From the sequence record NC_054903.1: a DNA stretch of 64,000 nt; one strand, written 5' to 3'. The notes beneath the pieces are model-generated. The model was not told the origin of the DNA. It saw only the letters and a list, made by a program, of their open reading frames with translations, and ran no database searches. A program made the translations under genes and the position numbers. Within the stretch, counting starts at the first letter, position 1; each line of letters opens with the position of its first letter. The stretch is from Enterobacteria phage GiZh. This document shows positions 27,720-37,557 of the stretch, in pieces.

Positions 27720-28190
27720 TTAATCATGTTTCCACACCCCATCGGTATTTGACCAAAGTCGCTGATTATCTGATCCTCGCCACAGCTTTTTGGTCGGAAG
27801 ATTTTTCTCATACTTCCCATCAATAATAACATCAACATATTTAAGCATTTCTAGTTGTTTAATATCTTCAAACTTATATCCTGTCCACAACCAAATGCTT
27901 TTACTGGGATAAAGATTTTTTACTGTTTGAACGATGCAATGAATAACATCTCGGTTATCAGGATAGAGAGGGTCTCCTCCAGTTATAGTTAATCCTTCTA
28001 TATAATCATTATTCAAACATTCAATTAATTGCTCTAGTGTTTCACCAGTGAATGGAATACCATTTCTAGCATTCCATGTTGATTTATTATAACACCCTTC
28101 ACATTTATGCAAACAACCTGTAACGAAAAGAACGACCCTGCAACCAGGGCCATTCACAAAATCACAGGGATAAAATCTATCGTAATTCAT
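27720..28190 (-). CDS. nrdG: anaerobic ribonucleotide reductase activating protein NrdG (radical SAM)
   Basis: 156 aa; N-terminal Cys cluster CDFVNGPGCRVVLFVTGCLHKCEGCYN; overlaps nrdD stop. Confidence 0.9.
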   Translation of the reverse strand: MNYDRFYPCDFVNGPGCRVVLFVTGCLHKCEGCYNKSTWNARNGIPFTGETLEQLIECLNNDYIEGLTITGGDPLYPDNRDVIHCIVQTVKNLYPSKSIWLWTGYKFEDIKQLEMLKYVDVIIDGKYEKNLPTKKLWRGSDNQRLWSNTDGVWKHD

Positions 28191-30004
28191 TGGTGTTTAA
28201 CCCTATGCATGATTTCTTTATTTTTACCGAGATTAAATCCGCGCTCGTTCGGATTTCCCAAATAACCACATGTTCTTCTTATGGTATTCATCTTTTTAGG
28301 ATCAGTTTCTCCACAAATAGAACAAACAAATCCGTTTTCAGTAGGAGTCATTTCATGGGTACTTCCACATGTAAAACATTTATCTACTGGCATATTAACA
28401 CCAAAATAATCTAAATGTTGTGCAGCATAATCCCATACGGCCTCAAGACCTTTTAAGTTATTTTTCATATCAGGAAGTTCAACATAAGAAATGTGACCAC
28501 CTGTCGCAATGAAATGATATGGCGCTTCACGAGAAATCTTTTCAAACGGAGTAATATTTTCTTCTACTGAAACATGGAAACTGTTAGTGTACCAGCCTTT
28601 ATCAGTAACATCTTTTACACTTCCATATTTTTCTGTATCAAGTTTACAGAAGCGATAACAAAGGTTTTCAGCAGGAGTCGAATATAAACTAAAAGCAAAT
28701 CCAGTTCTTTCAGTCCACTGTTTAAGATGAGCATTCATTTTAGTTAAAATTTCTCGTCCAATATCACGACCGACAAGAATATTCAATTCGTGAATACCAA
28801 TGTATCCTAAAGACACTGAACTTCTACCGTTTTTAAATAACTCAATTATGTCGTCATCAGGTTTAAGACGAACCCCGAATGCACCTTCTTGGTAAAGAAT
28901 AGGAGCAACAGTAGCTTTAACTCCTTTTAAGGAACTAATTCTACACATCAAAGCTTCAAAACACAGATCCATTCGTTCATTGAATAATTCAACAAATTTC
29001 TGTTCATTGAACTGTGTTCCAATATAAGAATCTAACGCGATGCGAGGAAGATTCAGTGTTACAACACCAAGATTATTACGTCCATCAAGAATTTCATTAC
29101 CAGTCGAATCTTTCCATACGCTCAAGAAACTACGGCAGCCCATTGGAGAAACCGGAACTGAAGAACCAGTAATAGCTTTATTATTCTTAGCTGAAATAAT
29201 ATCAGGATACATTCTTTTGCTTGCACATTCTAGAGCAAGCTGTTTAATATCATAGTTCGGATCGTCTTTATAAAGATTAACACCTTCTTCAACGAACATA
29301 ACAAGCTTAGGGAAAATAGGAGTTATCCCATCACGACCGAGACCTTTAATACGATTTTTCAGAATTGCTTTCTGAATCATTCGTTCAGTCCAGTCAGTTC
29401 CTGTACCAAATGTAATTGTTACAAAAGGTGTTTGTCCGTTTGAACTAAAGAGAGTATTTACTTCATATTCATAAGCTTGGAATGCATCGTATACGTCTTT
29501 TTCTGTTTTAGATTGAGCATAATTCAACGCATCAGCGATTTGCCATTTTTCTGCATCCTCAATATGTTTTGCATAGGTGCGTTTAACATAAGGAGAAAGT
29601 ACTTTATCTACATTCGCAAAAGTCGTTCCGCCATATTGATGGGAAGCAACTTGCGCAGTAATTTGTGCCATAATTGCAGTAGCAACGCCAATTGATTTAG
29701 GAGTTTCAATCTGTGCATTACCAAGCTTAAATCCGTTCTCAAGCATTCCTTTTAAATCTACTAAACAGCAATTAGTAAATGGAAGAGCAGGGGAATAATC
29801 AATATCATGGAAATGAATAATTCCGCTTTCATGCGCTTTCATAATAAAAGACGGGACCATATTTTTGGCAATGTGTTTAGACACAATACCAGCCATAAGG
29901 TCCCGTTGAGTTGGAAAAACACGAGAATCTTTATTAGCATTCTCGTTTAAAAGGTCTTTATTAGTTTTATGAATCAATCCTTCAATTTCTTTTTCAATTG
30001 TCAT
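28187..30004 (-). CDS. nrdD: anaerobic ribonucleoside-triphosphate reductase NrdD (glycyl radical enzyme)
   Basis: 605 aa uninterrupted; C-terminal glycyl radical motif RTCGYLGNP and Zn-ribbon CFTCGSTHE...CSICG. Confidence 0.95.
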   Translation of the reverse strand: MTIEKEIEGLIHKTNKDLLNENANKDSRVFPTQRDLMAGIVSKHIAKNMVPSFIMKAHESGIIHFHDIDYSPALPFTNCCLVDLKGMLENGFKLGNAQIETPKSIGVATAIMAQITAQVASHQYGGTTFANVDKVLSPYVKRTYAKHIEDAEKWQIADALNYAQSKTEKDVYDAFQAYEYEVNTLFSSNGQTPFVTITFGTGTDWTERMIQKAILKNRIKGLGRDGITPIFPKLVMFVEEGVNLYKDDPNYDIKQLALECASKRMYPDIISAKNNKAITGSSVPVSPMGCRSFLSVWKDSTGNEILDGRNNLGVVTLNLPRIALDSYIGTQFNEQKFVELFNERMDLCFEALMCRISSLKGVKATVAPILYQEGAFGVRLKPDDDIIELFKNGRSSVSLGYIGIHELNILVGRDIGREILTKMNAHLKQWTERTGFAFSLYSTPAENLCYRFCKLDTEKYGSVKDVTDKGWYTNSFHVSVEENITPFEKISREAPYHFIATGGHISYVELPDMKNNLKGLEAVWDYAAQHLDYFGVNMPVDKCFTCGSTHEMTPTENGFVCSICGETDPKKMNTIRRTCGYLGNPNERGFNLGKNKEIMHRVKHQ

Positions 30005-30523: not shown

Positions 30524-30988
30524 TTAAAACGCTCGGTCAGAAAAAGAAATTTGAGTTTCAAGCCATTCAATATATTCTGCCGCGGCTTGCATTAAATTTC
30601 CTTCATAATCATCAATATCTTTTTTCAACGCCGATTTAGATAATGCATATGAAATTCGTTCACCCTGAAATCCAGCTTTAGGTTTATGAAGAACTTGATC
30701 AATTCGTTCTACAACTTCTTCAATTTCGCCATTTTCTGCGGATTCAGTATTCCACAAGCACCAATACGTAATTGGCTTATCATAGATGTTAATAATCTTT
30801 CCATCAGAAAGTTCAATTTCAATAATTCCAGTATCAGGTTCTATATCATCTTCGCATTCTTTTGCAAGTTCACGAACTTTAAAGACAGTACCTGCACTAA
30901 GTTCCGGCCAGTAATTACACAGCCCTTTATCAGCACGATTAATTCTAAACCACTTATCTACTGCAATCATGTCCCATCTCCATATCAA
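30524..30988 (-). CDS. hypothetical protein (possible pin position)
   Basis: 154-aa ORF immediately downstream of gene 49; synteny only. Confidence 0.45.
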   Translation of the reverse strand: MIWRWDMIAVDKWFRINRADKGLCNYWPELSAGTVFKVRELAKECEDDIEPDTGIIEIELSDGKIINIYDKPITYWCLWNTESAENGEIEEVVERIDQVLHKPKAGFQGERISYALSKSALKKDIDDYEGNLMQAAAEYIEWLETQISFSDRAF

Positions 30989-31414: not shown

Positions 31415-31597
31415 TTTTCACCAATTAATTTCGCAATTTATTAAGTTCTTCATCATCAATCCAGGATTCTAGTCCTGATGGCAGGGCACATTCAATTTCC
31501 CAAAGAAGTTCTTCAATTTTCTGAAGACGTTCTAGTTCTTCGGCTGGAATAGCAACCATTGACGGAGCTCGTGATACATTAATATCGTAAATCATAT

Positions 31598-31813
31598 TTA
31601 CCCCAATTTAACCATACAATCGCCGTATTTCCACTTAGAAATAGACTTTTCACCATTAGAATAATAAACTTCGAGTTTAGCACGATTATTTTTAATTTGA
31701 ATAACCTTTGCTGTCATCAAAGTTCCATACCCATAATAAACTGCAACTTCATCACCTACATATACCGCGCTTCCACGATAATCATGGATATAATCAGTTC
31801 CTTCGAGCATCAT
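31598..31813 (-). CDS. hypothetical protein
   Basis: 71-aa ORF, ATGA overlap with nrdC stop. Confidence 0.45.
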   Translation of the reverse strand: MMLEGTDYIHDYRGSAVYVGDEVAVYYGYGTLMTAKVIQIKNNRAKLEVYYSNGEKSISKWKYGDCMVKLG

Positions 31814-32317: not shown

Positions 32318-32621
32318 TTTCTTCTCGGTCAAATCGGTGTTTACAATGGCGACATTTATAACGAAGATTATTAGTCTGCCAATGGACCAATTGCACCTGT
32401 TCAGTTCCACATTCAGGGCAATTAGGAACGTTTTTAGAAGCCCTTTCGCGACGTTCAACCATAGCCATAATAGCATCCCATGCTGGAGGTTTAAAGTCTA
32501 AATCATCACAACCATGAATCTTTCCACGCATTTCCAGATCGTCTTCTTCACCAGCCATAATAATTTTAATTAGACTGGAATTACTTGAAGCTGCAATATC
32601 TTCTAATAGACGCTTTTTCAT
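32304..32621 (-). CDS. zinc-ribbon protein
   Basis: 105 aa; CPECG...CRHCKH four-Cys motif. Confidence 0.5.
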
Positions 32622-33547
32622 TTCAATACCTCAATAGCATTACGTAAACCATTTGCTTTTGCATTAAGAGCTTTTAACAATTTGGTGTGTTCGGCAATCT
32701 GGGCTTCAACTTCAATCAAACGGGCATTGAGATATTCACGTTCTTCACTCAGATTATCAACCTTTTCTACTTTAGGTTCTTTTACAACTGTCTTATATGT
32801 ATTAGGGTTCTTCAGTTTAATTAGAATGCGTGAACTGTATAACATTGAACCATTATCTTCGGTTTCGTCATACATTTCCACTACGTCCATAATTTTTAAC
32901 ATCATGCGGAGTTTATAAGACAACGAACGAATAGTTTTGTTGTGCTTATTAATTTCTTTAGCTGTCATGGTGCCAAGATTACGTGAGTAATAATAAGGAA
33001 CCTGGATATTAATTAATACTGATGAACCACCTGGCTTGTGTGTTACTTCATCAGCAATAACCCAGTCCTTAACATGAACTGTATTTGTACGGTCATCGCC
33101 CGCGGTAAATAGTTTGCGAGCATGCTTAAAAAGCATATTCACTTGGTCATTGAATTGACAAGCAAATTTATCAGCAAATTTAGTTTCAGGAATGGTAGAT
33201 AACCAATCAGCCAAATGAGTCTTTTTAACATCGTTAACAATAGTAAATTCAACCAAATCGGTTATAGATGTCTCAGATTTAATAAAGCTCGGCTTCATAA
33301 AGTTTTTAATGTTATCGTGAGCTACAGTAGAAGATAACATACGAGAACGTTTAAACCATTCAAGCAAATTACCTAACGAATGAGAATAAGCGTTTTGAGT
33401 ATCTTTACAGATATGATTTTCCTGGCCAACATATTGAAGGAAATCACGAAGAATATTATTGATTACTGCTCTGTGTCCGATCTGATAATTACGATGTTTA
33501 GTAATAAGACTGTCAAAATAATCAATGTAATGTTTACGAGTTTTCAT
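32618..33547 (-). CDS. hypothetical protein with C-terminal coiled coil
   Basis: 309 aa; N-terminus MKTRKHY; C-terminal heptad-like helix [37 protein letters not shown]. Confidence 0.55.
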   Translation of the reverse strand: MKTRKHYIDYFDSLITKHRNYQIGHRAVINNILRDFLQYVGQENHICKDTQNAYSHSLGNLLEWFKRSRMLSSTVAHDNIKNFMKPSFIKSETSITDLVEFTIVNDVKKTHLADWLSTIPETKFADKFACQFNDQVNMLFKHARKLFTAGDDRTNTVHVKDWVIADEVTHKPGGSSVLINIQVPYYYSRNLGTMTAKEINKHNKTIRSLSYKLRMMLKIMDVVEMYDETEDNGSMLYSSRILIKLKNPNTYKTVVKEPKVEKVDNLSEEREYLNARLIEVEAQIAEHTKLLKALNAKANGLRNAIEVLK

Positions 33548-33599
33548 GTTCTTCTCACTTGGTTAATGATTTATGCTCCGAGCCATCCTTGGCTTTAAA

Positions 33600-34601
33600 T
33601 TACTTAATTAACTGTAAAGCTTGTTCAAGACGATCCAAGCGATTGACAGATTCTTCCCAAATCTTTTTAGCCTGCTCATATTCTTTCTGCGCTTTATTAG
33701 AAATTTCTAGAACTTCTTTATAAGCTTTTTCTAATGCAATAACTTCTGGACGAATTTCTGCCGGTTCAGGCGAATCATCAAGATTATCCATTAGTTCCTC
33801 AAGGGTAGTTTCTTCTTTAGGAGTATTCACAATTTCCTCACATTTTTGTTGATAAATTTCTTTATCAGTAGGTGAATAAGCACATTTCACTTCACGAAGA
33901 CTAATTACAATTTTATATCCTTCCCATCCGCATATATTCTTAAAAGGATATGTATGAATATTTTCTACTGTTTCCATACAAAGTAATGCAGTCTCTAACT
34001 GACGAGTTATAGTGCTAGCAATTGAGAAAAATTTATTAATATTCTTTTGGTTAGCGTTTGGTGTAAAAAATCCATAATTCACAAAAATAGCTACTTTATT
34101 TTCATCAAGCTCATATTCTTTTACGATAATCATATCAGAAGCCAAAGGATGAATTTGACGATAATCGCCATAACATAATTTAGAAGCTGATTTTAGAATT
34201 TGTCCTTTGAAAAGTCTGAAATTACTAATCCAACGACGAGTAAAAATATTCTCAGGGTCTTCTTTATTATTAAGATGATAAGAATTAACATCACCGAACC
34301 AATTATATCCTACTACATCTTTGGTTCGTTTAATTTCTTTCCCAAAATTACCAAGAATATCCCGATTAACCAAATATGAAAGAAGACGAGACTCTTTAAA
34401 AGTTTTCTTGATAACATCTTTATCTACACGGCTAGAAATTTTACGAATTTCATGAATAAATTTAGTAGAAGAAACAATACTTGCATCAACACTATTGAGC
34501 CATTGATTGATAATAGAAAGAACGATATTTTGACCAAACATCGGTATAGCTTTATCATCAATAACGCTATTGAATGATTTGATATATTCGTTACGAGTCA
34601 T
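33600..34601 (-). CDS. hypothetical protein with C-terminal coiled coil
   Basis: ATG 34601-34599 with GAGGAGA RBS (MTRNEYIKSF...); track N-terminal extension covers the early promoter; C-terminal amphipathic helix. Confidence 0.55.
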   Translation of the reverse strand: MTRNEYIKSFNSVIDDKAIPMFGQNIVLSIINQWLNSVDASIVSSTKFIHEIRKISSRVDKDVIKKTFKESRLLSYLVNRDILGNFGKEIKRTKDVVGYNWFGDVNSYHLNNKEDPENIFTRRWISNFRLFKGQILKSASKLCYGDYRQIHPLASDMIIVKEYELDENKVAIFVNYGFFTPNANQKNINKFFSIASTITRQLETALLCMETVENIHTYPFKNICGWEGYKIVISLREVKCAYSPTDKEIYQQKCEEIVNTPKEETTLEELMDNLDDSPEPAEIRPEVIALEKAYKEVLEISNKAQKEYEQAKKIWEESVNRLDRLEQALQLIK

Positions 34602-34629
34602 ATTAATCTCCTCAGTAGAAAGTAAGAAC

Positions 34630-34659
34630 ATTATACCACATCCTTGTGGCAAAGTAAAC
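34630..34659 (-). promoter_or_regulatory. T4-type early promoter
   Basis: minus strand GTTTACT, 17 nt, TATAAT. Confidence 0.5.
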
Positions 34660-35663
34660 TAGTTCAGTGCATTTAGTGCATTGTTCAGTTTAGAACGTTG
34701 CTTCGTGAGATTTTTGACTTTTTCTTGTGCTTTTTCTAGCATCTTTTCAGCTTCTAACACTTCATTGGTCGCTTTAACGAGTTCATCATCTACTGCCTTG
34801 ATGGACTTCTCAATCGCATCCGCGTGCCATTTTTCAACAGGTTTAAGACTCGGATTTTCAACAGGAAGAAAATTCACTTTATTAAATTTCCATGCATCTT
34901 TATTACCTGAACTATACATCCAAAATTTAGGATCGTTTGATGAGTAATTAGTTTGGGGTTCAGGTTTTTTCTCTTGTGTAACTTCGTCCTTTCTCAAAAA
35001 ATCATATTTAAATGAAACGATCATATCAAGTTCATATGTTGTCGTATCTAATTTAAATCGTTCGAAATGCTGCGAAATCTTAGATTGAACAGCAGCAACA
35101 ACATCCATATACTTAAATGCTTCTGTCAGCTGTGATTTAAGACATTCACAAATTGAAAGAGAATTTTTTGTATTAGGTTTAAAGCTAATTCGTGCAGTTC
35201 TATTATTTTCTTTAGATGGTCTTACTTCCATTTGAAGAGTATAACCATCAAATTTCAGATTCTTTAAGTTAATATCAGAACCTTTTAATCGACTAGCAGT
35301 AGACAAAATTTGCTTTAATTGTTTACGGAATAGAGCAATAAATCTCCATTCAAGACGATAATGATTTGGATTGAAAAATCCAGATGATAAATCGACCTTA
35401 CTCTGACCGACGCCTTGAACAAATAGAGGATTTTTATAATCAATAGTTTTACAGAAATCGGTGAGCTGCTCACGAGCAGTCATTTGTGTAATATATCCCG
35501 CTTTACTAAAATGACGTAACCATTCACTGCTATTCATATATTTAAAGTGAATATCACGATTAACTTTATCAGGGTCTAAATTATTTTGGCACAAAAATGT
35601 CATAACATTACGGGTATAGCTGGCATTACGAACCATATCTTCAATTTGAGAACGAGTTTTCAT
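34659..35663 (-). CDS. hypothetical protein with C-terminal coiled coil
   Basis: 334 aa; N-terminus MKTRSQI; C-terminus KMLEKAQEKVKNLTKQRSKLNNALNALN. Confidence 0.55.
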   Translation of the reverse strand: MKTRSQIEDMVRNASYTRNVMTFLCQNNLDPDKVNRDIHFKYMNSSEWLRHFSKAGYITQMTAREQLTDFCKTIDYKNPLFVQGVGQSKVDLSSGFFNPNHYRLEWRFIALFRKQLKQILSTASRLKGSDINLKNLKFDGYTLQMEVRPSKENNRTARISFKPNTKNSLSICECLKSQLTEAFKYMDVVAAVQSKISQHFERFKLDTTTYELDMIVSFKYDFLRKDEVTQEKKPEPQTNYSSNDPKFWMYSSGNKDAWKFNKVNFLPVENPSLKPVEKWHADAIEKSIKAVDDELVKATNEVLEAEKMLEKAQEKVKNLTKQRSKLNNALNALN

Positions 35664-35671
35664 AGTGTTCC

Positions 35672-36580
35672 TTAAGATTTAAGTAAATCAACAATTTTAA
35701 TTAATTTTTCACGCTCAGATTTAGCTTTACTACTCAATCCAGATAGTCTGAAAATTTCATCGTCATACTGTTGAATAGAAATATTCAGCTCTTCAATTTG
35801 CTTATTAAAATAATCAATTTGTTCAGAATGTTTTTCGTTACTACGAACTGGTACAGGTTTTGTAGGCAATTTAGTTGAACTGGATTCATCCGGGCGATAA
35901 ATTAAAATACAACTTGAACCAATTGGACATTTTGCACCAGATGAATATTCTAACGTTCCAGCTTCTTTTAAAACTTCAAAAGCTAAACAGAGATGATGCC
36001 CCATATTAACATAATCTGTAGAGCGAGCTCTGACGTAATAATCATCGCCGCGAATACTAAATTTAAAGCATTTAAGGTCTTCTGTATTATTGGTCTTAAA
36101 AATCATTTGTTTATCTAGACCTTTAGCTAATCGAGCGCCTAATGCTAATAATCGTCGTTGATTTTCCCACAAATCTGCGATCATTTGGTCAAATGATAAT
36201 TTCGGCATTAGTCGACCATAAAGGTCATATCCTTTATTATAATTACGAAGAATTTCACTCGCGTTAATACGAGACAATGCTCCAATTTTATTAAGGGCTT
36301 TCATAATGCGATTAGATAAACCCATTCCAGACCCGTTTGTTCGCTGTAAATGTTTTTCTAATCCAAATCCAATATCAACTTTAAACTTATCTAAAATTTC
36401 TGCATGAACATCTCTGTCAATAACATTCAAATCCAAAGTTGGGTTAAATCTATGAAAAAATTTATCTGGCTCTCCACGACGAAGTATAGTCCATTCATTC
36501 AATTTTTTATTAACTAAAGATTTAATTACTGCATTGACATTATTAATTACTACTGACATATTTTCCTCACTCAATTTCAA
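35672..36580 (-). CDS. hypothetical protein with C-terminal coiled coil
   Basis: 302 aa; C-terminus QIEELNISIQQYDDEIFRLSGLSSKAKSEREKLIKIVDLLKS. Confidence 0.55.
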   Translation of the reverse strand: MKLSEENMSVVINNVNAVIKSLVNKKLNEWTILRRGEPDKFFHRFNPTLDLNVIDRDVHAEILDKFKVDIGFGLEKHLQRTNGSGMGLSNRIMKALNKIGALSRINASEILRNYNKGYDLYGRLMPKLSFDQMIADLWENQRRLLALGARLAKGLDKQMIFKTNNTEDLKCFKFSIRGDDYYVRARSTDYVNMGHHLCLAFEVLKEAGTLEYSSGAKCPIGSSCILIYRPDESSSTKLPTKPVPVRSNEKHSEQIDYFNKQIEELNISIQQYDDEIFRLSGLSSKAKSEREKLIKIVDLLKS

Positions 36581-36974
36581 TTTTACTAAATATACAGAAT
36601 ATGATGGAAAAGACTATATAAGCACCACACACAGATTGAACTAATACCATTCCAAAGAACCAAACAATATTATCAAACAATGTCTGTTTTACGTCGAAAG
36701 GACGTAAACTTACAGTAATATTATCACCTTTTTCTATTGAAGAATACATCTCCGGTGAAATATATTCGCTAAATCTATAACCGTCTTTAAGTTCATATAC
36801 GGCAATAAACGATAAACTAGACCCCTTTCCTTGAGTTCCTGTAAGGGTATTAACTACAGTAACATCATAATCTTTATAATGCATATAATCATTAATAGCA
36901 TAATAACCATATGCAATTACTATACATAAACAACATATCAATAAATTCAATCTTTTAATTATCAACTGTTTCAT
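36567..36974 (-). CDS. membrane protein
   Basis: 135 aa with N- and C-terminal hydrophobic helices. Confidence 0.5.
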   Translation of the reverse strand: MKQLIIKRLNLLICCLCIVIAYGYYAINDYMHYKDYDVTVVNTLTGTQGKGSSLSFIAVYELKDGYRFSEYISPEMYSSIEKGDNITVSLRPFDVKQTLFDNIVWFFGMVLVQSVCGAYIVFSIIFCIFSKIEIE

Positions 36975-37029
36975 AATAATCTCAGTTAAAAGGGCTTAGA
37001 ACCATTATACCATCCTTGGTATAAAGCGG

Positions 37030-37557
37030 TTATGCGAGTACCGTCTTTAACCGTTCTTCAAACTTCCGAAGAGTATTCTGGCGTTCAGCTCTTTGCTTTT
37101 TGTAAGTTTCAATACGCTCTGAAATGAGAGTGTATCGTTCATTTACTGATTCTTTCATAAAATCAGGAATTTCACGAGAAGCTTTAATCTCGTCAAATTT
37201 ATCAATAACTGCTTGCTCTTCAGCAATTAAGTTATCATACATCAAAATATCTTTCTTGATGAACTCAATATCTTCTTGAGTTACACGAGATAATTTAGAT
37301 GCTTTATCCTTTTTGTACTGTTCGTTAGTATCACGAGACCAGTGTAATGTACGATTTTTATTCGTATTCTTGTAAATTTCTACAATACCAATCTCATCGA
37401 TAATAATGATCCAATTCCAACGGGATTTGTAAATTTGTCCTCCATCAACCGTGATTTCACCTCCAATTGAGATGTCATTAAAGAACTTGCTTTGTGCTTC
37501 AGATTTAAATTTACCATCGTTGTAATTTACCAAGTTAAAAATATCTTTAGCATTCAT
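37030..37557 (-). CDS. hypothetical protein with C-terminal coiled coil
   Basis: 175-aa ORF just downstream of an early promoter; helical charged C-terminal half. Confidence 0.5.
   Translation of the reverse strand: MNAKDIFNLVNYNDGKFKSEAQSKFFNDISIGGEITVDGGQIYKSRWNWIIIIDEIGIVEIYKNTNKNRTLHWSRDTNEQYKKDKASKLSRVTQEDIEFIKKDILMYDNLIAEEQAVIDKFDEIKASREIPDFMKESVNERYTLISERIETYKKQRAERQNTLRKFEERLKTVLA

Follow-up and report, generated by a model that had tools for sequence, protein, structure and literature searches.

Four consecutive genes of Enterobacteria phage GiZh are very probably tandem paralogues of a single protein family that is found across the T4-like phages (Straboviridae). The genes, designated A to D here, lie within positions 32618–37557 of the 64,000-nucleotide stretch of DNA that was analysed (sequence record NC_054903.1; the window) and are the orthologues of T4 nrdC.3, nrdC.4, nrdC.5 and nrdC.6. 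Two further genes in the same interval, E and F, correspond to T4 nrdC.7 and nrdC.8. One of the four paralogues, NrdC.5, is reported to counteract a bacterial immune system and, taken as a whole, we consider it fairly probable that A to D form a tandemly expanded counter-defence family. The original prediction made for this DNA, from its sequence alone, was of unrelated N-terminal domains grafted on to one shared C-terminal docking module, a picture that is not supported, since A to D are homologous over their full length.

A and B both match phrog_1435 full length and are 25% identical to each other over 230 amino acids by BLASTP. Profile comparisons with hhalign, using non-redundant family alignments built from 19 related loci and three database searches, relate A to B with an E-value of 2e-14, A to C with an E-value of 3.8e-6 (residues 1–309 against 1–334) and the AB profile to C with an E-value of 2.3e-7. 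The AB–C match persists after removal of the C-terminal tails discussed below (E 3.2e-7, probability 93%, 173 columns), and coiled-coil composition is therefore not what drives it. Nine T4 structural proteins served as negative controls and all gave hhalign E-values of 0.07 or worse. An exhaustive profile search of 1.84 billion representative sequences also identified a protein (P0236) that bridges the B and C types, with a B-like N-terminus and a C-like tail. This search gave 16 hits, all of them T4-like phage proteins; judged by sequence, the family is confined to these phages. When profiles of B, C, D and F were searched against the sequences in the PDB, only designed helical repeats, a ribosomal protein and coiled-coil glycoproteins were found, with weak E-values, and these matches were treated as compositional.

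The link to D comes from structure prediction. AlphaFold2 monomer models of B and D, built from the family alignments, display the same order of elements: a helical bundle, a long helix, a hairpin, a helix, a second hairpin, a floppy linker and a terminal helix. A Foldseek search of the BFVD database with the B model retrieved the NrdC.6 protein of phage JS10 over its full length (E 1.3e-5, probability 1.0) and an NrdC.3 protein (E 2e-8). The D model retrieved the same uncharacterised proteins of 300–370 amino acids as the B model, from T4-like phages of Pectobacterium, Enterobacter, Acinetobacter and Erwinia, together with an NrdC.3 protein (E 4e-3). In Acinetobacter phage Acj61, which belongs to a different subfamily, two of the Foldseek matches are adjacent genes located just beside nrdC; both encode heptad-patterned tails and one ends LNKALEIMML. 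These models place D in the same family as A to C. The predicted layout of all four begins with a bundle of helices and continues with an alpha/beta core in which a long helix, a hairpin, a further helix and a further hairpin follow one another; a floppy linker, whose length varies, then leads to an amphipathic helix of 45–60 residues at the C-terminus, which ends L-x-x-A-L-x-x-L-K.

The suggestion that the N-terminal domains are unrelated thus fails for A to D, by the tail-less AB–C match and, in the case of D, by predicted structure; only F lacks a detectable relation. Comparison with the T4 nrdC.x genes had been proposed as a check on that suggestion: A to D do have known T4 orthologues, but these are homologous to each other. 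In Pfam and PHROGs, NrdC.3 and NrdC.4 (PF26897, phrog_1435) are placed in a separate family from NrdC.6 (PF26899, phrog_2257), both families being of unknown function. Literature searches turned up no account of the paralogy, of the common architecture or of the tail conservation, and nothing on DUF7235, PF26897 or PF26899. The family relationship appears to be undescribed, although the genes themselves are known T4 open reading frames (ORFs).

The C-terminal helices of these proteins are unusual. For the 90 non-overlapping window ORFs that encode 80 or more amino acids, we computed a heptad score over the final 35 residues as the product of hydrophobic occupancy at heptad positions a and d and polar occupancy elsewhere. 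C, A, F, B and D occupy ranks 1, 2, 3, 5 and 7, with scores of 0.61–0.83 against a median of 0.38. Rank 4 is taken by the ORF at the position of T4 pin (window 30524–30970), which lies in the same accessory block. Read by hand, the a/d spacing of hydrophobic residues is unbroken over about five to seven heptads in the tails of A, B and C. In shuffle tests on the whole proteins, between 0 and 9 of 200 shuffles reached the observed heptad score; for A and B the top-scoring window was a core helix rather than the tail. AlphaFold2 models the end of B as a single helix (residues 285–332) with a predicted local distance difference test score (pLDDT) of about 76–84, and that of D as two (242–271 and 277–294), each following a low-confidence linker. 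The amphipathic, heptad-like helices with which the proteins had been said to end are borne out by these ranks and by the long terminal helices of the models.

The tails share little sequence between paralogues other than at their very end. A terminal motif, L-x-x-[AIV]-[LIVM]-x-x-[LIVM]-K, starts 9 or 10 residues from the C-terminus in all four paralogues, in the majority of their orthologues, in P0236 and in Acj61p120; it occurs within the last 12 residues of six of the 90 window ORFs, four of which are A to D. Upstream of these last nine residues the tails of different paralogues are distinct (tails-only hhalign E-values of 7e-4 to 0.12). A tails-only profile comparison is too short to decide homology of the tails, and the position of the terminal motif was used instead. 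Because A to D are homologous along their whole length, the tail will have been inherited with the tandem duplication rather than shared by shuffling, and it is an ancestral feature of the family.

Within each group of orthologues the position is reversed, with the tails 58–92% identical where the bodies are 26–83% identical. For B the figures are 58–92% for the tail and 28–76% for the body (in one instance, 76% against 28%) and for D they are 59–72% and 26–41%. Pairwise ratios of non-synonymous to synonymous substitution (dN/dS) are mostly 0–0.12 in the tails of A, B and D and 0.15–0.37 in the bodies of A, B and C. The globular body, in other words, diverges fast whilst the helix stays constant. 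A tail that is kept within orthologues and differs between co-expressed paralogues is a better fit to paralogue-specific self-association than to a single docking partner and, on the basis of these sequence patterns, the chances that the helix drives such self-association are about evenly balanced.

What is known of function comes from T4. The T4 nrdC.5 gene, referred to as an uncharacterised early gene, is reported to restore infection by a deletion mutant on cells carrying Dsr1 (complementation on MG1655 with dsr1), a SIR2 NADase defence that NrdC.5 counteracts (Srikant, Guegler and Laub 2022, PMC9391042). C is orthologous to this protein (DUF7235, PF23882) along its full length and occupies the same genomic position; at 91% identity it would be expected to counteract Dsr1 also. 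A, B and D are paralogues of NrdC.5 with the same architecture but body identities of 20% or less, and tested activity exists for NrdC.5 only; they are the direct orthologues of T4 NrdC.3, NrdC.4 and NrdC.6, the last of which lacks the tail in the T4 reference. Nothing published on the mode of action of NrdC.5 was found in the literature searched.

The genomic setting is that of an accessory region. All of nrdC.3 to nrdC.8 are reported as non-essential in a T4 transposon screen, and nrdC.1 to nrdC.6 as deletable as a block; the array consists of dispensable accessory genes. Nearby genes with reported counter-defence roles include those encoding gp49.2, active against OLD, and nrdC.1, active against Septu, and the neighbouring pin gene is annotated in the T4 record as encoding an inhibitor of the host Lon protease. 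By analogy with NrdC.5 it is on balance likely that NrdC.3, NrdC.4 and NrdC.6 also serve in counter-defence, each binding a target of its own directly by means of its variable body.

We favour a model in which tandem duplication gave rise to nrdC.3, nrdC.4, nrdC.5 and nrdC.6, each copy keeping its C-terminal helix. NrdC.5 neutralises the Dsr1 SIR2 NADase, as experiment has shown, and the other copies would neutralise other host immune proteins, most likely by binding them directly through the variable body. The helix would oligomerise each paralogue as a coiled coil, adding avidity against oligomeric defence proteins, and the tails may differ between paralogues so that these do not mix. The original prediction held that no function could be assigned, which is outdated for nrdC.5 given the anti-Dsr1 activity reported for the T4 protein (PMC9391042). 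Its proposal of an effector family, each member possibly hitting a different host target, has fared better: one member is a proven effector, whilst the targets of the others remain a reasonable prediction.

A number of observations weigh against this model. The sequence link between D and the other paralogues is weak (hhalign E 0.003 for C–D and 0.02 for AB–D; 0.003–0.03 overall) and is not significant alone; membership of D rests on predicted structures, for which TM-scores are only 0.39–0.49, modest values that we attribute to multi-domain models with free tails. Read by hand, the middle heptads of B and C have alanine, serine and aromatic residues at core positions, which could equally be compatible with antiparallel packing or with docking on to another protein. 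No pairwise dN/dS value exceeds 1, and positive selection is not demonstrated. In the HIDEN-SEQ comparison, nrdC.3, nrdC.4 and nrdC.6 are reported with no phenotype (adjusted value 1.0), and the targets proposed for them are predicted ones. Finally, the shared terminal motif could mean that there is a common partner after all.

This last point leads to an alternative that we regard as unlikely, in which the C-terminal helix is a common docking module for one shared partner (a host hub protein or a phage scaffold) and the bodies carry differing activities. Such a module would fit with the nine-residue motif that closes the proteins of all four families, and of distant members, at a constant distance from the C-terminus, and with the tail being the best conserved part of each protein. 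A swapped tail also exists in a deposited complete phage genome, that of Salmonella phage Manna, where an NrdC.6 body is followed by an NrdC.4 linker and tail. Against a docking module, the tails are paralogue-specific upstream of the last nine residues, and the strong conservation of each tail among its own orthologues is a better fit to separate self-interactions. The one common docking partner originally envisaged sits poorly with tails that match between paralogues no better than E 7e-4, and end-to-end homology makes a modular explanation of the shared tail unnecessary.

Rather more doubtful is the possibility of structural mimicry, according to which the alpha/beta core copies a virion domain of the tail-terminator type and the proteins, made ahead of the late virion proteins, are decoys: they would sit on host pattern-recognition sensors for structural proteins of the phage and leave these sensors untriggered. 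In favour of the idea, the Dsr1 system that NrdC.5 targets is reported to sense a structural protein, the major capsid protein, and other sensors to detect tail terminators (PMC13581612); by the same report, Dsr1 senses the capsid protein and not the tail terminator. Tail terminator and completion proteins (lambda gpU, T5 p142 and those of gene transfer agents (GTA) and phage Mu) differ from the A to D family in being virion proteins of about 130–180 amino acids without a helical bundle, linker or coiled-coil tail; the structural match scores are modest, and the PDB comparison covered one model. No sequence similarity is seen between the family and T4 gp3, gp15, gp13, gp14, gp19, gp23 or gp24, and descent from T4 neck, tail or capsid proteins, tested by profile comparison, was negative. 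In an oligomeric form of the proposal, which we rate as equally improbable, a tail-terminator-like core imitating a conserved virion protein would be made early and, ahead of the late structural proteins, pre-load host pattern-recognition sensors such as those of the Dsr1 or Avs type, keeping them inactive, with the coiled coil providing avidity. If this were true, tandem duplication would be the phage's way to track several structural-protein sensors at once.

A last and very improbable reading is that there is nothing special about these genes: small A+T-rich phage proteins would often end in an amphipathic helix, and a run of five would be a coincidence with no shared role behind it. Other window proteins do score fairly high, Pin at rank 4 being an example, and nrdC.8 has no detectable homology to the other four. 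Against this reading, the five proteins hold ranks 1, 2, 3, 5 and 7 of 90, the tail and its terminal motif recur in other genera, even in an Acinetobacter phage, and constraint is stronger on the tails than on the bodies. For A to D these same considerations led us to set the coincidence reading aside.

The tandem family occupies a locus that behaves like an arms-race locus. Family copy number ranges from 2 to 4 among the phage loci compared. For nrdC.3 there are two old allele classes, with a synonymous divergence of about 1.1 against 0.1–0.3 for most comparisons of neighbouring genes. A is only 60.6% identical to the T4 allele while its flanking genes are 91–98% identical, and it is 96–99% identical to the alleles of three other Tequatroviruses (loci L002, L005 and L006), suggesting that the nrdC.3 allele has been replaced by recombination.

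Several rearranged forms of these genes were encountered. The Manna chimera (Manna_094, L002 6215–7252) is an in-frame fusion in which NrdC.6, up to about residue 262, runs on into the linker and tail of NrdC.4, the latter part being 91.6% identical to residues 268–350 of B (in the numbering of a 350-residue B); the junction falls between YDDEI and VNTPKEE, and nrdC.5 and most of nrdC.4 are deleted. In a metagenomic protein of 299 amino acids (P0057), residues 145–266 of NrdC.5 are followed by NrdC.3 from about residue 136 to residue 309, nrdC.4 having been deleted, and gp220 of Shigella phage Sf25 (P0059, 378 amino acids) is an NrdC.6 in which an internal segment of about 83 amino acids is duplicated in tandem. 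P0057 and P0059 suggest frequent illegitimate recombination within the array. Two further sequences, P0235 and P0238, resemble NrdC.3 and NrdC.4 but have numerous changes to F, L, C, Y, I and V scattered along them; they may derive from damaged or chemically converted DNA, or from poor assembly.

The T4 reference sequence itself (NC_000866) differs from the window in nrdC.6. When L001 9990–10200 is compared with window 35660–35870, a deletion of one nucleotide is seen (GCTGAATATT to GCTG-ATATT) and the T4 product is 275 amino acids in length. The resulting frameshift removes the C-terminal helix, which is still encoded intact in the next frame; D is intact. In the resequenced T4 used for HIDEN-SEQ, nrdC.6 is reported to be intact at 891 nucleotides, and the frameshift in the reference is either a strain-specific mutation or a sequencing error. 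Elsewhere in the window, nrdD (28187–30004) is one uninterrupted ORF of 605 amino acids that, in contrast to T4, has neither a group I intron nor I-TevII, and at 31425–31813 two small ORFs (56 and 71 amino acids) take the place of T4 gene 49.3.

Gene and feature positions are collected in the table. By sequence search, the 4,940-base stretch shares 97% identity with the genomes of many members of Tequatrovirus (T4-like phages), and the window is from a Tequatrovirus genome; gene order matches the map in the annotated T4 record. All the genes of the stretch are on the minus strand in the ORF list. The five tailed genes had been described as four consecutive proteins of 300–350 amino acids and one of 175, and the genes, their positions and strand stand. 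The lengths of two do not: B starts at the ATG at 34601 (333 amino acids) and not at a TTG (350), as indicated by a GGAG Shine-Dalgarno sequence and a promoter-like site just upstream and by its homologues, and D starts at the ATG at 36559 (295 amino acids) and not at an upstream TTG (302), as indicated by its homologues and a Shine-Dalgarno sequence. The two proteins said to begin MKTR are A and C; B begins MTRNEY. A promoter and terminator scan showed no enrichment of promoter-like sites in the region, and those that precede B, F and nrdC.10 are simply noted.

Table. Positions (window numbering) and properties of the GiZh nrdC.3–nrdC.8 genes and associated features
Feature	Position	Strand	Description
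A	32618..33547	−	309 amino acids; T4 nrdC.3 orthologue, 60.6% identity to T4 NrdC.3; phrog_1435, E 2.1e-116, full length
A tail	32621..32764	−	Residues 262–309; heptad helix ending LRNAIEVLK; heptad rank 2/90; terminal motif at −9
B	33600..34601	−	333 amino acids; T4 nrdC.4 orthologue, 96% identity; phrog_1435, E 2.9e-169, full length; AlphaFold2 pLDDT 81.8
B tail	33603..33752	−	Residues 284–333; modelled as one helix, 285–332, ending LEQALQLIK; heptad rank 5/90
Promoter match directly upstream of B	34630..34658	−	Sigma-70-like: TTTACT, 17-nucleotide spacer, TATAAT, with TG; consensus match only
C	34659..35663	−	334 amino acids; T4 nrdC.5 orthologue, 91% identity, full length; Pfam DUF7235 (PF23882)
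C tail	34662..34850	−	Residues 272–334; heptad helix ending LNNALNALN; heptad rank 1/90; terminal motif
D	35672..36559	−	295 amino acids; T4 nrdC.6 orthologue, 97% identity over 259 amino acids; phrog_2257, E 7.4e-153; AlphaFold2 pLDDT 77.6
D tail	35675..35848	−	Residues 238–295; helices 242–271 and 277–294, ending LIKIVDLLKS; heptad rank 7/90
E	36567..36974	−	135 amino acids; T4 nrdC.7 orthologue, 92% identity; phrog_2547; predicted membrane protein in T4 annotation
F	37030..37557	−	175 amino acids; T4 nrdC.8 orthologue, 98% identity; phrog_2274
F heptad-patterned C-terminal half	37033–37245	−	Residues 105–175; heptad rank 3/90

In the Pfam scan, C matched PF23882 over residues 1–334 with 393.5 bits (gathering cut-off 30; E 9.8e-118), and no match to this family was found for A, B, D or F. 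This was the only assignment accepted from a scan that did not include the PF26897 model; hits to PHL, Phage_int_SAM_1, DUF4164 and the CENP-F leucine zipper were all below their cut-offs and were dropped. Precomputed assignments place PF26897 on all homologues of B and on the NrdC.3 part of P0057, and PF26899 (the NrdC.6 family) on all 105 homologues of D. Orthologues of nrdC.3 to nrdC.8 are widely annotated in GenBank and UniRef as 'thioredoxin' or 'putative thioredoxin', apparently from the nrdC.x name. The Pfam scan, at E-values up to 1, assigned none of the six proteins to a thioredoxin family, the topology of the B and D models is not that of thioredoxin, and the annotation is wrong.

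Two genes in the stretch fall outside the family. E, although located within the array, does not belong to the family, and the arrays of Dhakavirus and Gaprivervirus have no counterpart of it. F had been grouped with A to D in the original prediction, a grouping that is not supported: hhalign comparison of F with A, B, C and D gave E-values of 0.02 to 0.8, amounting to no link, and the motif scan did not find the terminal motif in it. On present sequence evidence nrdC.8 appears to encode a separate, more conserved protein, a neighbour of the array whose C-terminal half is helical. On account of its name, T4 nrdC.8 is listed among 'nucleotide reductases' in a 2026 paper on DRT1 (PMC13275509), which nothing in the sequence supports.

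A parallel to NrdC.5 is provided by DSAD1 of an SPbeta-type phage, which binds the sensor region of its target, DSR2, directly. Like NrdC.5, DSAD1 is described as repressing a sirtuin NADase defence (DSR2) whose sensor recognises a virion protein. The two differ in that DSAD1 is from another phage group and has no reported C-terminal coiled coil, and no homology between them is expected.

The advance made here is a new grouping within phage counter-defence genes, the genes being already known and one having a published function. T4 is the best studied of phages, yet its nrdC.3, nrdC.4 and nrdC.6 genes are without known function. As paralogues of nrdC.5, the only gene of the block with a known role, these three become specific counter-defence candidates with different targets, and the array as a whole illustrates a way in which phages might come to counter a wider range of defences, via tandem duplication.

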